Assembly (NCBI GenBank): GCA_035541475.1
Contig: DATKND010000054.1
Location: forward strand, 4,069-68,068
DNA: 64,000 nucleotides
Origin: Myxococcota bacterium
Lineage (GTDB): Bacteria > Myxococcota_A > UBA9160 > SMWR01
Direction: 5' to 3'
The notes under the pieces: model-generated
Told to the model about the DNA's origin: nothing
Databases searched by the model: none
What the model saw: the letters and a program-made list of their open reading frames with translations, nothing else
Part shown: one piece after another, positions 22,808-26,572 of the stretch
Layout: each line of letters opens with the position of its first letter
How positions within the stretch are numbered: the stretch's first letter is position 1
Program-made: the position numbers and the translations under genes

Positions 22808-23329
22808 CTAGCGCTTCTTGAACTCCGCCAGCCGCTCGCGATAGGCGGCGCGCAGCGCGTTGATCTCGGGCCGCGTGAAGCCGATCTCCTCGCCGATCGC
22901 GGCGATCTCGGCGCTCTCGACCGTCTCGATGATGCCGTCCGCGGCGGCGACCTCGAACAGACATTCGAGCAGGCGCGCGCGCTGCTCCGGGGTCGAGATG
23001 CTCTTGAACTCGCGCGTCACCACGTAGTTCTCGGTGCCGCCGAGGAGTCGCGCCTGTGACTTCGCGATCTCCACCACGAGCGCCGCCTCCGCGTCCGAGA
23101 GGCCCGCGCTGCCGCGGACGGCCTTCTCCATTGCGATCGTCTCGCTCTCGTCGATGTGGAGATCGGCCTGCGCGACGCGCGCGAGCACGTACGCGAAGGC
23201 GGCCAGGTACTTGGCCTGCGCGGGGTCGAGGCGATCGAGGCGCGCGGCGATGCGGCGCACCGTCTCGGTGTCACCCGCGCCGTCGCGCGACGCAGCGCGG
23301 ACTCCGAGGAAACGCAGCAGCGAGACCAC
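22808..23329 (-). CDS. TerB-family (tellurite-resistance-like) protein
   Basis: GTG 23329, 11 nt after the upstream TAA. Only the last 173 codons of ORF 22808..24805 read as native: AKYLAAFAYVLARVAQADLHIDESETIAMEKAV...LLECLFEVAAADGIIETVESAEIAAIGEEIG. Confidence 0.65.
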   Translation of the reverse strand: MVSLLRFLGVRAASRDGAGDTETVRRIAARLDRLDPAQAKYLAAFAYVLARVAQADLHIDESETIAMEKAVRGSAGLSDAEAALVVEIAKSQARLLGGTENYVVTREFKSISTPEQRARLLECLFEVAAADGIIETVESAEIAAIGEEIGFTRPEINALRAAYRERLAEFKKR

Positions 23330-23340
23330 GGCGACCGACG

Positions 23341-24876
23341 TTAGCGCCGCAGGCGCAGGTAGCGCCCGAACCAGCGCGCGATGCCGGGCGTGAAGCGGCT
23401 GCGCGTGTAGAAGCCGGCGGCGCGCTTGATGCCCTCGGCCTGTGTCGGATACGGGTGGATCGTGTTGCCGATCGCGGAGAGACCGAGGTCGGCGGTCATC
23501 GCGAGCGTCAGCTCGCCGATCATCTCGCCCGCGTGGCTCGCGACGATCGTCGCTCCGACGATGCGATCGCTGCCCCGCCGCAGGTGCACGCGCACGAGGC
23601 CTTGCTCCTCGCCGTCTAGGACGGCGCGATTGACCTGCGCGAGCGGCACGTCGAGGGTGTCGACCTCGATGCCCTGCTTCGCTGCCTCGGCCGCGTGCAG
23701 GCCCACGTGCGCGACCTCGGGGTCGGTGTAGGTGCACCAGGGCATGACGAGCGACGAGATCTTCTTGCGGCCGAGCGGGCCGAGCGAGAAGAGCGCGTTC
23801 TGCACCGCGATCTTCGCCGACGCGTCGGCCGCGTGCGTGAATTTCCAGTCGAGGCAGACGTCGCCCGCCGCGTAGATGCGCGGGTTGCTCGTGCGGAGCG
23901 CGTCGTCCACGCGCACGCCTTTGCGGTCGTAGGCGACGTCCGCCTGCTCGAGGCCGAGCCCCTCGACGTTCGGCGCGCGGCCGACGCCGACCAGGATCTC
24001 GTCGACCGCGACTTCCTCCGCTGCGCCGCCCGCTCGCGCGAAGTGCAGGCGCTTCGCGCCGTCCCGCAGCGAGACGCGCTCGAGCTTCGCGCCGTGCACG
24101 ACGCGGATGCCCTCCTCGGCGAAGCGGCGCTCCAGCAACGCCGCCACGTCGGCGTCCTCGCGCGGCAGCAGGTGCGCGTCGGCGTGCACCACCACGACCT
24201 CGGAGCCGAGTCGCCGGAAGGCCTGCGCCATCTCGCAGCCGATCGGGCCGGCACCGATCACGCCGAGACGCGGCGGCCGCGCGGTCAGGTTGAAGAGCGT
24301 CTCGTTGGTGAGGTAGCCCGCCTCGGCGAGACCCGGGATCGGCGGCGCGGAAGCGCGCGCGCCGGTCGCGACGATCGCGCGCGCGAACCGCAGCCTGCGG
24401 CCCTCCACCTCGATCTCGTCGCGCCCCGTGAAGCGCGCCTCGCCGAGAACCACCTCGACGCCGAGCTCGTCGCGATAGCGCGCAGCCGAGTCGTCGTGGC
24501 TGATGCGCGCGCGCACGACCCGCATGCGGCGCATCGCGGCGGCGAAGTCGGGCTGCGCCCCCGGCGCGAGCGCGAGCCCGATCTCCTTCTCGGCGCGCCG
24601 CGCCTCGGCGGCGAAGCGCGCGGCGCGGATCACGCCCTTCGACGGCACGCAGCCGACGTTCAGGCAGTCGCCACCGAGATAGTGTCGCTCGATCATCGCG
24701 ACCTTCGCGCCGAGACCGGCGCCGACCGCCGCCGAGATCAGGCCCGCGGTGCCGGCGCCGACGACCACGAGGTTGTAGCGGCCGGAGGGTTGCGGGTTCT
24801 GCCATGCGCGCGGGTGCACGTTCTCGAGGAGCGCGCGATTGGCCTCGTCCTGCGGCTCGATCGGGGGCAGCTCCAC
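23341..24876 (-). CDS. Class I pyridine-nucleotide-disulfide oxidoreductase (mercuric/glutathione-reductase-like)
   Basis: GTG start with GGAGG upstream. FAD site VVVGAGTAGLISA. Redox-active disulfide GGDCLNVGCVPSK. NAD(P) site GVIGAGPIGCEMA. C-terminal dimerisation region HPYPTQAE. Confidence 0.85.
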   Translation of the reverse strand: MELPPIEPQDEANRALLENVHPRAWQNPQPSGRYNLVVVGAGTAGLISAAVGAGLGAKVAMIERHYLGGDCLNVGCVPSKGVIRAARFAAEARRAEKEIGLALAPGAQPDFAAAMRRMRVVRARISHDDSAARYRDELGVEVVLGEARFTGRDEIEVEGRRLRFARAIVATGARASAPPIPGLAEAGYLTNETLFNLTARPPRLGVIGAGPIGCEMAQAFRRLGSEVVVVHADAHLLPREDADVAALLERRFAEEGIRVVHGAKLERVSLRDGAKRLHFARAGGAAEEVAVDEILVGVGRAPNVEGLGLEQADVAYDRKGVRVDDALRTSNPRIYAAGDVCLDWKFTHAADASAKIAVQNALFSLGPLGRKKISSLVMPWCTYTDPEVAHVGLHAAEAAKQGIEVDTLDVPLAQVNRAVLDGEEQGLVRVHLRRGSDRIVGATIVASHAGEMIGELTLAMTADLGLSAIGNTIHPYPTQAEGIKRAAGFYTRSRFTPGIARWFGRYLRLRR

Positions 24877-24902
24877 GGTTTCCTCCGACGCTCGGGTTCT
24901 CG

Positions 24903-25613
24903 TCAGTCGCTCGTCGCCTCGGCCAGCGCGCGGCGCGCGACGCGCGTCACGTACACCGTTGCGACGACCGTCGCGACCAGTCCGATGGCGAGCAGCGCGC
25001 TCTGGCCCGGTCCGCGCTCGGGCCGCGCGCCGCCGGCGAGCGCCGCGAGGTCGCCGACCACGCGGCCGAGATACACGTAGAGGAGCGTGCCCGGCAGCAT
25101 GCCGACGGCGGCCACCGTGTAGTCGCCGAAGCGCACGCGCGTCAGCCCGAGCGCGTAGTTCAGCAGGTTGAACGGGAAGACCGGGGAGAGCCGCAGCAGC
25201 AGCACGATCTTCCGCCCTTCCGCGCCGATCGCGCGATCGATCGCCGCGAAGCGGGGGTTGTCCGCGATGCGCCGCTCGACCGCGGCGCGCGCGAGATAGC
25301 GCGCGACGAGGAAGGCGGCGCAGCTCCCCAAGGTCGCGGCGACGAACACGTAGAGCGTCCCACGCGTGACTCCGAAGATCGCGCCGGCGGCCAGGGTCAT
25401 CAGCGACGCCGGCACGAAGGCCACGACGGCGAGCGCATAGCCTGCGACGAAGACGAGGGGCCCCCAGAATCCGAGCTGCTGGACCCAGGCGGCGAACGCG
25501 GGGATGCGGTCGCCGACGCTTCGTCCGATTGCGAAGAGCGCCGCCAGCGCGAGCGCACCGAGCGCGAGCTTCGCGAGGGGCGCGCGCGAGGCGGCGGTCT
25601 CCGTCGAGGTCAA
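24903..25613 (-). CDS. TVP38/TMEM64 (DedA-superfamily) membrane protein
   Basis: TTG 25613 overlaps the upstream TGA (cTTGAcc). GFWGPLVFVAGYALAVVAFVPASLMTLAAGAIFG..GTLYV..LGSCAAFLVARYL..LRLSPVFPFNLLNYALGLT. Confidence 0.8.
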   Translation of the reverse strand: MTSTETAASRAPLAKLALGALALAALFAIGRSVGDRIPAFAAWVQQLGFWGPLVFVAGYALAVVAFVPASLMTLAAGAIFGVTRGTLYVFVAATLGSCAAFLVARYLARAAVERRIADNPRFAAIDRAIGAEGRKIVLLLRLSPVFPFNLLNYALGLTRVRFGDYTVAAVGMLPGTLLYVYLGRVVGDLAALAGGARPERGPGQSALLAIGLVATVVATVYVTRVARRALAEATSD

Positions 25614-26572
25614 GCCAGCGCGCCGCCGCACGACGAGCCCGCGCCGGCGGTGCAGCCGAAGCAGTGCGGCGCCGTCGCGATCGGCGCGCCTTCGAGCTCC
25701 GCGAGATCGTCGATCTCGAAAAGGCTCCGAGCTCCCGACCCGAGCGGGAGCTCGAGCATCTGGTTGAAGTCGCAGTCGTGGAGCGCGCCCTCGTACGAGA
25801 CCGACACCAGGTGGCGGCACATCAGCGCCGGAATCGTCTCGGCGTTGAAGTGGTTCACCAGCAGCGCCATGTAGGCCTCGTGCTGACCGTCGCGCGCGAG
25901 CGCGTGCGCGAAGCGCTTGATCGGCATGTTGGTCAAGGTGGCGAGGCGGTGGAACTCGATCCCGAACCCACGGCGGAGTTCCTCGCGGTAGCTGGCCTCG
26001 AGCGTTCTCTCGTCGGGCGGCAGCGACGGGCCCTGCGGGTTGTAGACGAGATCGAGTCCGAGCGGCGAGCCCGGCAGTCCATAGCCGAGCGCGTTCAGAA
26101 GGCGCAGCGCCTCGATGCTTCGCTCGAAGACGCCGCGGCCGCGCTGGCGGTCGACGTTCTCGGCGCCGTAACACGGAAGCGACGCGACGATCTTCACGCC
26201 GTTCGCCGCCAGAAACTCCGCGGTGTCGTCCTGTCCCGGCTCGAAGAGCACGGTCAGGTTGCAGCGGTCGATCACGTCGCGGCCCTGCGCGCGCGCGCCG
26301 CGCACGAGGTCCCGGAAGCTCGGCGCGAGCTCCGGCGCGCCGCCGGTGAGATCCAAGGTTGCGACACGAGGACTGCGGGCGAGCAGCTCGAGCACGCGCG
26401 CGGCGGTGCGCGCGTCCATCGTCTCGGTCCGCTTCGGGCCCGACTCGACGTGGCAGTGATGGCACGCGAGGTCGCAGCGCCTGCCGACGTTGACCTGCAA
26501 GGTGCGGACGCTCGCGCGGCGCAGGCCGTCCGGGTACCTGCGCGCGACGGCTTCCTCGAAGGAGGGCTGCAT
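25610..26572 (-). CDS. Radical SAM protein of the ArsS / radical-SAM-Cys-rich family
   Basis: ATG 26572 within ORF 25610..26875. CxxxCxxC motif in VNVGRRCDLACHHCH. The characteristic C-terminal HCFGCTAGAGSSCGGAL is present. About 320 aa, as I recall for this family. Confidence 0.75.
   Translation of the reverse strand: MQPSFEEAVARRYPDGLRRASVRTLQVNVGRRCDLACHHCHVESGPKRTETMDARTAARVLELLARSPRVATLDLTGGAPELAPSFRDLVRGARAQGRDVIDRCNLTVLFEPGQDDTAEFLAANGVKIVASLPCYGAENVDRQRGRGVFERSIEALRLLNALGYGLPGSPLGLDLVYNPQGPSLPPDERTLEASYREELRRGFGIEFHRLATLTNMPIKRFAHALARDGQHEAYMALLVNHFNAETIPALMCRHLVSVSYEGALHDCDFNQMLELPLGSGARSLFEIDDLAELEGAPIATAPHCFGCTAGAGSSCGGALA

Follow-up and report, generated by a model that had tools for sequence, protein, structure and literature searches.

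The radical S-adenosylmethionine (SAM) enzyme ArsS, as characterised, uses the 5'-deoxyadenosyl radical of SAM to convert dimethylarsenite, DMAs(III), into DDMAA, that is 5'-deoxy-5'-dimethylarsinoyl-adenosine, in a redox-neutral reaction (PMC13598754; bioRxiv 10.64898/2026.04.29.721666), and in Synechocystis the arsS gene is co-transcribed with the methyltransferase gene arsM (bioRxiv 10.1101/2022.09.23.509062). Selenoprotein members of the corresponding family, TIGR04167, carry selenocysteine at the GxxU position (PMC13188914). A second line of work concerns the COG0398 DedA membrane proteins, which have been proposed to be phospholipid scramblases and tied to aerobic metabolism; their commonest fusion partner is a FAD-dependent disulfide reductase, and the function of this combination is unexplained (PMC10127716). 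Our literature search found no paper linking ArsS or arsenosugars with DedA/TVP38 proteins, and in it TIGR04167 and DUF3641, the C-terminal domain of ArsS, appeared only in selenoprotein tables or surveys. Here we analyse a 64,000-nucleotide (nt) stretch of a Myxococcota genome (contig DATKND010000054.1, positions 4,069 to 68,068), hereafter called the window, which contains a same-strand quartet of genes (22808-26572, minus strand) encoding an ArsS-family radical SAM protein, a VTT membrane protein, a FAD disulfide reductase and a TerB-domain protein. The first three of these form a deeply conserved core, and the VTT-reductase pair turns up repeatedly beside ArsS in several phyla.

The four genes are tightly packed. 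The gene for the ArsS-family enzyme (25610-26572, minus strand; 320 amino acids, ATG start) overlaps by 4 nt that for the VTT/TVP38-TMEM64 membrane protein of the DedA superfamily (24903-25613, minus strand; 236 amino acids, TTG start), in a TTGA where the TTG start occupies 25613-25611 and the TGA stop 25612-25610. A 26-nt gap with GGAGG inside (24877-24902) leads to the gene for the reductase, a class I pyridine-nucleotide disulfide oxidoreductase with FAD (23341-24876, minus strand; 511 amino acids, GTG start), and 11 nt past its stop (23330-23340) the gene for the soluble TerB-domain protein begins (22808-23329, minus strand; 173 amino acids, GTG start). A preliminary description of this DNA, made from the sequence alone, had given these coordinates, junctions and motifs correctly, and public gene calls on the same contig list the identical four products of 320, 236, 511 and 173 amino acids; its family calls also hold, all four proteins scoring above curated Pfam or NCBIfam cut-offs. 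Upstream the quartet is bounded by a divergent SDR/MaoC pair and downstream by a convergent gene for a 229-amino-acid protein, followed by an EF-G paralogue, and these borders mark it off as a self-contained unit. The four genes are probably co-transcribed, and the 238-bp region between ArsS and the divergent SDR/MaoC operon (26573-26810) presumably serves, to judge from its position, as a promoter region in both directions. A scan of 22000-27200 for promoter and terminator consensus sequences returned no sigma-70-type site and one terminator-like site, which lies within a neighbouring gene and does not exceed what shuffled sequences give; the G+C content of the window is about 70%. An Rfam scan of the whole 64 kb gave no matches, hence no riboswitch 5' of the operon.

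Membership of the radical SAM protein in the ArsS family is clear. It scores 422.1 bits against TIGR04167 (cut-off 300) over model positions 2-303 of 303, that is, over the full length, as well as 171 bits against PF12345 (the DUF3641 C-terminal domain) and 46 bits against PF04055. It has both hallmarks of the family, the cluster motif CxxxCxxC, here CDLACHHC, and a DUF3641 domain with CxxC...(C/U)GG, whose C-terminal end reads HCFGCTAGAGSSCGGALA; CDLACHHC and CFGCTAGAGSSCGGAL(A) were verified in the translation. The protein is 100% identical to one named ArsS in a public Myxococcota metagenome-assembled genome. Across 82 homologues the C-terminal motif is near-invariant and none has selenocysteine, all carrying Cys, and the window ArsS likewise has Cys at the position where the selenoprotein members have selenocysteine. 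A search of the PDB with ArsS returned only weak matches to radical SAM cores (E>=7e-5) and no structure from the ArsS family. Adenosylation of DMAs(III) to DDMAA, known for the characterised enzyme, is the predicted activity of the window ArsS.

The membrane protein matches PF09335 at 96.5 bits (cut-off 33.9) and, scanned in windows of 19 residues, has four or more distinct hydrophobic stretches, as a polytopic protein would. Its identity to the VTT portion of non-Myxococcota VTT-reductase loci, mostly fused ones, is 29-49%, and its identity to both annotated TVP38/TMEM64 proteins of an arsM-arsS operon in Pseudanabaena is 43-53%; homology to the fused forms would place it in the COG0398/YdjX branch. 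The reductase scores 770.2 bits against NF004991 ('FAD-containing oxidoreductase', cut-off 620) and matches PF07992, PF00070 and PF02852, which correspond to the FAD, NAD(P)H and dimerisation domains. Its redox-active CxxxxC disulfide reads CLNVGC (GGDCLNVGCVPSK was found in the translation, as described before) and its His-Glu motif HPYPTQAE. The protein begins with a 30-residue N-terminal extension and closes with a basic amphipathic tail that contains no Cys and ends in HPYPTQAEGIKRAAGFYTRSRFTPGIARWFGRYLRLRR; such a Cys-free basic tail, with a net charge of +2 to +5, is kept in split and fused homologues alike. In the close relative L172 (sampled loci are referred to by L numbers) gene calling divides the reductase (7697-9229) into two products, one of 372 and one of 134 amino acids, for which either a frameshift, and hence pseudogenisation, or an assembly error would account.

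Two described enzymes invite comparison with this reductase. It is the split-form counterpart of the reductase half of the 'bifunctional TVP38/TMEM64 family protein/FAD-dependent oxidoreductase', the COG0398 DedA fusion: each half has its homologue there, split and fused reductases have the basic C-terminal tail in common, and the window reductase is 38-46% identical to the non-Myxococcota, mostly fused, forms. It differs in that the halves are separate genes 26 nt apart and that the window reductase belongs to the NF004991 branch, whereas the fused form of Acinetobacter scores 478 against that model, under the cut-off. The preliminary description had mentioned fused proteins of this kind, and they are indeed seen at ArsS-linked loci and in annotated plasmid records. 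Of the 23 ArsS-linked loci with both VTT and reductase, 18 encode them in a single open frame; most proteobacterial loci and one Binatia locus have the fused form, Myxococcota and cyanobacteria the split one. The other enzyme is mercuric reductase, MerA, with which the window protein shares the fold family, the redox-active CxxxxC and the region of the His-Glu dyad, and whose cores are the closest solved structures (5x1y, E=4.6e-80). The C-terminal vicinal Cys pair of MerA passes Hg(II) to the active site; the window reductase has neither this pair nor an NmerA domain, and its 404.8 bits against the MerA model TIGR02053 lie under the cut-off of 454.45.

The association of the pair with ArsS was followed in the best 80 of more than 597 ArsS matches from species-representative genomes, a sample retrieved by means of an alignment of ArsS homologues. 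Its members are 51-69% identical to the window ArsS and come from many phyla; the sample leans toward window-like ArsS. Neighbours were found by tblastn, with the window proteins and proteins from the loci as queries, and by clustering of all open reading frames (ORFs), and were counted up to 6 kb from ArsS; 52 of the 80 loci have at least 5 kb of flank on both sides. VTT and reductase occur together near ArsS in 23 of the 80 loci, 21 times on the ArsS strand, and in 18 of the 52 well-flanked ones. An ArsM-like methyltransferase is found in 21 (15 well-flanked), the TIGR04282/TIGR04283 transferases in 38 (30 well-flanked), MTAP in 8 (6 well-flanked) and a TIGR03169 oxidoreductase in 7, all of them well-flanked; NCBIfam models confirm the identities of these proteins. 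Leaving aside antisense artefacts and generic regulators, no other ORF family reached 10 of the 80 loci; the commonest remaining neighbours are ECF sigma factors (14 of 80), which occur as ECF sigma/zf-HC2 pairs near ArsS in other phyla and also on Burkholderia plasmids.

The VTT-reductase pair usually shares its clusters with ArsM, the TIGR04282/TIGR04283 'arsenosugar' transferases and MTAP: at least one of these accompanies 19 of the 29 loci that have VTT or reductase. Its position is not fixed, being upstream of ArsS in L015, L017, L019, L022 and L084, divergent from it in L014 and L064, and downstream in most others. The varying gene order, together with the coexistence of fused and split forms, argues for retention by function and not by shared ancestry alone. 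In the Myxococcota relatives L001, L006, L009, L012, L087, L089 and L171-L174, ArsS, VTT and reductase form a stand-alone unit. Other genes recur some distance 3' of ArsS in proteobacterial clusters. One encodes a TIGR03169 'N-terminal-to-SelD' oxidoreductase, some kb away (L044, L046, L049, L066, L069-L071 and others; 372 bits in L070, cut-off 310); others encode DUF3047 and DUF547 proteins and a metallophosphoesterase, none of them annotated as an arsenic gene.

Annotated plasmid records display the same company gene by gene. On pPg_02 of Pseudanabaena galeata, genes for TVP38, a 'mercuric reductase', arsM, a second TVP38 and arsS run in one direction; the ArsM scores 570 bits against NF038099, the model of cyanobacterial arsenosugar ArsM (cut-off 400), and the reductase, 54% identical to that of the window, 833 bits against NF004991. 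In Cupriavidus sp. KK10, consecutive genes encode ArsM, ArsS, reductase, VTT, both transferases and MTAP. In Acinetobacter portensis, arsS is found with an annotated bifunctional TVP38/FAD oxidoreductase, DUF547, TIGR04283, TIGR04282, an ArsM-like methyltransferase, a phosphate transporter and mtnP. Within 13 kb, Burkholderia glumae holds a fused VTT-reductase, the transferases, MTAP, thioredoxin, CcdA and ArsS. This ArsS/VTT-reductase island of plasmid bglu_2p (L179 1-12879) lies beside duplicated sets of DoxX, DUF692, DUF2282 and DNA-binding-domain genes and beside merR and merC, and the region is a dense metal-stress island. For Synechocystis, where arsM is slr0303 and a YdjX-type TVP38 gene is slr0305, with slr0304 listed only as 'hypothetical protein', the two may be neighbours; this putative layout was left out of the evidence.

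ArsS is found without the pair nearby in Burkholderia thailandensis, Thiodictyon and Hymenobacter. Plasmids of B. thailandensis, Acinetobacter and B. glumae have a thioredoxin-family gene and a CcdA gene next to ArsS (L166 6519-7633; L170 4199-5324; L179 22762-23876), B. thailandensis without VTT-reductase nearby. Like the pair in the window, this combination consists of a membrane protein and a thiol-disulfide oxidoreductase that adjoin ArsS, and its occurrence at such loci suggests a shared need for a membrane-linked reductant. The proteins are unrelated, however, and since Acinetobacter and B. glumae carry both reducing systems, a simple substitution of one for the other is not proven. We also considered the VTT protein as a CcdA-like Cys relay. 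This was rejected, as the relay of CcdA uses conserved Cys residues and the single Cys of the VTT protein is replaced by another residue in a homologue.

In a neighbour-joining tree of ArsS, proteins from VTT-reductase contexts interleave with those from ArsM and transferase contexts, which rules out a distinct ArsS clade for VTT-reductase contexts, and the clade of the window ArsS is sister to ArsM-linked proteins. The ArsS of L002, 71% identical to that of the window, is encoded by a gene that overlaps an ArsM-like gene. The window resembles the described ArsM-ArsS arsenosugar clusters, whose characterised pair is that of Synechocystis, in that its ArsS falls in the same NCBIfam equivalog and shows the same cluster motif and C-terminal Cys motif, and in that an NF004991 reductase and a TVP38 protein also adjoin ArsS in annotated examples of them. 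It differs in the addition of TerB and in what it lacks: tblastn (E<=1e-3) over the whole 64 kb detected neither of two ArsM types, in agreement with the preliminary description, nor ArsC, the TIGR04282/TIGR04283 transferases or MTAP, so that the window ArsS is not coupled to ArsM within it. The same search found no thioredoxin/CcdA, TIGR03169-like oxidoreductase or ECF sigma factor, and no DUF547, CDP-alcohol phosphatidyltransferase, sterol-desaturase-family protein, DUF3047 or metallophosphoesterase.

The TerB gene behaves differently from the other three. Its product matches PF05099 at 62.7 bits (cut-off 24.4; model positions 3-117 of 118), and it has no hydrophobic segment, as expected of a soluble, single-domain protein. 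The complete four-gene operon, with the same flanking genes, is found in the relatives L171-L173, whose ArsS proteins are 90%, 84% and 81% identical to that of the window, and TerB is directly 3' of the reductase on three short metagenome contigs (L094, L097 and L099). Where ArsS identity falls to 76% and 73%, an anti-sigma/ECF sigma pair takes the place after the reductase and TerB is displaced. In L001 (73%) it lies 6.5 kb past the reductase, behind DUF2306 and DUF2834, and in L006, L009 and L012 it lies 1.3-2.6 kb downstream of the reductase. In these last three, reductase and TerB are separated by an operon (L006 7692-8913; L012 14809-15785; L009, minus strand) that runs divergently from TerB and encodes an ArsC-family protein, an ECF sigma factor and a zf-HC2 anti-sigma factor; the ArsC-family genes reach 87-104 bits against TIGR00014, narrowly below its cut-off of 106. 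Among the loci sampled outside Myxococcota, tblastn, at its sensitivity, revealed no TerB homologue near ArsS.

The TerB of terZABCDE tellurite-resistance systems shares the PF05099 domain with the window protein, which is, by comparison, single: a Pfam listing of the called genes up to 10 kb on either side, 20 kb in all, contains no other ter gene (TerA/Z/D/E, TerC), and the neighbours of TerB in relatives are the ArsC-family gene with its ECF sigma/anti-sigma genes, or DUF2306/DUF2834. By its distribution, TerB would be a recent, lineage-restricted passenger or accessory, and its conservation in relatives that have the flanking genes in common as well does not count as independent evidence of a function. 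Accordingly, the proposal that all four genes are conserved together stands in part: ArsS, VTT and reductase keep company across phyla, whereas within the operon TerB is adjacent only where ArsS is at least 81% identical.

Taken together, these observations lead us to favour, by a little over an even chance, a combined reading in which the locus is a trimmed ArsS module and the pair would act as a membrane-tethered NAD(P)H disulfide reductase that keeps or delivers the trivalent arsenical for ArsS. That VTT and reductase belong to the ArsS pathway is the more probable part of this reading, and the specific chemistry the less probable. According to it, the reductase would be anchored to the membrane through VTT and through its basic amphipathic tail and, with NAD(P)H, FAD and the CxxxxC disulfide, would keep a thiol-bound organoarsenical in the trivalent state for ArsS under oxic conditions, or restore it to that state. 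Alternatively, it may keep the C-terminal CxxC...C motif of ArsS itself reduced. The VTT protein may have the task of moving, within or across the membrane, the substrate or a product that is amphiphilic or lipid-linked. As to the element handled, the ArsM and ArsC-family neighbours point to arsenic.

Several considerations weigh against this reading. The ArsS reaction is redox-neutral, so that ArsS needs no stoichiometric reductant (PMC13598754), and the window has no ArsM as a source of dimethylarsenite. The arsenic link of VTT and reductase is one that we infer, and the 80 ArsS loci are those closest to the window ArsS and not a random sample of the family. Moreover, the pair has a life outside ArsS loci. 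In a reductase-anchored sample of 80 metagenome contigs, with reductases 55-70% identical to that of the window, VTT adjoins the reductase in 15 of 18 well-flanked loci, while ArsS does so in only 3 of these 18 and in 11 of the 41 with at least 2 kb of upstream sequence. In Pseudoalteromonas, Pseudooceanicola algae and Sphingopyxis, a plasmid search turned up fused VTT-reductase genes on chromids or plasmids (L176 5932-13899; L177 5932-13417; L178 5929-14076) that gave no ArsS match; the neighbours of the fused genes are DUF547, an ABC transporter, a CDP-alcohol phosphatidyltransferase and a sterol-desaturase-family protein. The role of the pair may accordingly be broader, perhaps on the lipid or head-group side. 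The ArsS-free marine loci also hold a TonB receptor and a nucleoside transporter, and one of the hosts was isolated from the alga Fucus; it is tempting to speculate that these operons represent a lipid or head-group pathway, perhaps one using imported arsenosugars or analogues.

Pressed further, the same facts yield the best-surviving rival, namely that VTT-reductase works generally in membrane redox or lipid homeostasis, for instance on a phospholipid head group of an unusual kind or on a thiol in the membrane, and is merely co-located or co-regulated with ArsS in a stress island, with no direct share in arsenic chemistry. The 15 of 18 well-flanked reductase loci where ArsS does not adjoin, and the ArsS-free operons that join the fused protein with the phosphatidyltransferase and the sterol-desaturase-family gene, along with DUF547 and ABC transporters, speak for it, as do the recurrence of ECF sigma and zf-HC2 anti-sigma genes nearby and the proposal that COG0398 DedA proteins, whose usual fusion partner is this reductase type, are phospholipid scramblases (PMC10127716). 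Yet the reductase-anchored sample, too, has ArsS (16 loci) and the TIGR04282/TIGR04283 transferases (15 loci) as its top neighbours after VTT, ahead of DUF3047, SDR, ECF sigma factor and metallophosphoesterase: the distribution of VTT-reductase is wider than that of ArsS, yet genes of the ArsS pathway are its commonest partners. The pair is also found between ArsS and transferase or ArsM genes within single same-strand clusters, and its association with ArsS survives changes of gene order as well as fusion and fission. We therefore regard a purely general module as rather unlikely, though it is the strongest competitor.

A different role within arsenic metabolism is also conceivable. VTT-reductase might take up pentavalent methylated arsenicals and reduce them at the membrane, DMAs(V) to DMAs(III), in which case ArsS-VTT-reductase would amount to an ArsM-independent salvage or detoxification route from dimethylarsenate supplied by the environment to 5'-deoxy-5'-dimethylarsinoyl-adenosine. 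We consider this improbable; if true, it would provide the first biochemical function for the widespread COG0398 DedA/disulfide-reductase fusions.

The preliminary description had proposed instead a self-standing four-gene pathway that acts on a reducible oxyanion of Se, Te or As, or on a thiol-bound intermediate, independently of the ArsM/ArsS route and with TerB as an integral part. Such a pathway would fit the lack of ArsM, transferases and MTAP from 64 kb, the repetition of the stand-alone ArsS-VTT-reductase unit in Myxococcota relatives, the presence of a DUF1971/TehB-like gene 3.4 kb off, and the fact that some TIGR04167 members are selenoproteins (PMC13188914). It is hard to reconcile with the rest of the evidence. 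The window ArsS interleaves on the tree with ArsM-coupled proteins and is 71% identical to one of them, a member of the reductase subfamily is encoded in a cyanobacterial arsM-arsS operon, and elsewhere VTT-reductase is embedded in clusters of ArsM, transferase and MTAP genes. TerB adjacency is limited to close relatives that also share flanking genes, and the links to Se and Te come from historical family names only, the ArsM and ArsC-family neighbours indicating arsenic. An independent pathway of this kind thus appears quite unlikely. Finally, that the reductase is MerA and the operon a mercury-resistance unit, as the closest structures and the 'mercuric reductase' annotation of the Pseudanabaena homologue might suggest, is effectively excluded by the sub-cut-off score and the missing Cys pair of a tail without any Cys, and the called genes up to 10 kb away included no mer genes.

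The surroundings of the quartet contain further genes with some conservation. The SDR and MaoC-dehydratase pair divergent from ArsS (26811-28584, plus strand) is MFE-2-like and syntenic in those Myxococcota relatives with enough upstream sequence (62-85% identical); it was not seen adjoining ArsS outside the phylum, and its synteny with ArsS is likely due to shared ancestry, not to a functional link. The pair opens an operon that continues with DUF1990, a PF1765-like gene and an unknown gene and is closed by the DUF1971/'TehB-like' gene (29939-30224, plus strand, the ORF being listed as 29772-30224; PF09313, 93.8 bits). This second domain with a 'tellurite' name, less than 7 kb from TerB, is kept in L172 and missing in L171. 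On the other side, the EF-G paralogue (an ORF of 708 amino acids) and, 10 nt on, the gene for the 229-amino-acid protein (together 19927-22752, plus strand) converge on TerB; the smaller protein gave a sub-threshold P-loop/AAA_25 match (19.3 bits) and no NCBIfam match, and the two genes are kept together in L171 and L173.

Each protein of the quartet is already named by standard pipelines, and its neighbourhood is visible in public annotation. Read against those of other genomes, the window locus is a trimmed ArsS cluster, composed of ArsS, a split TVP38 protein and reductase, and a lineage-specific TerB, and not a new four-gene chalcogen pathway. ArsS is the sole characterised step that commits arsenic to arsenosugars, and the present observations bear on two questions about it, namely the way in which aerobes supply its air-sensitive trivalent substrate and the events around the membrane. 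The finding that VTT-reductase accompanies ArsS about as often as ArsM does, in several phyla, joins the question of the DedA fusions and that of the ArsS substrate into one testable hypothesis.

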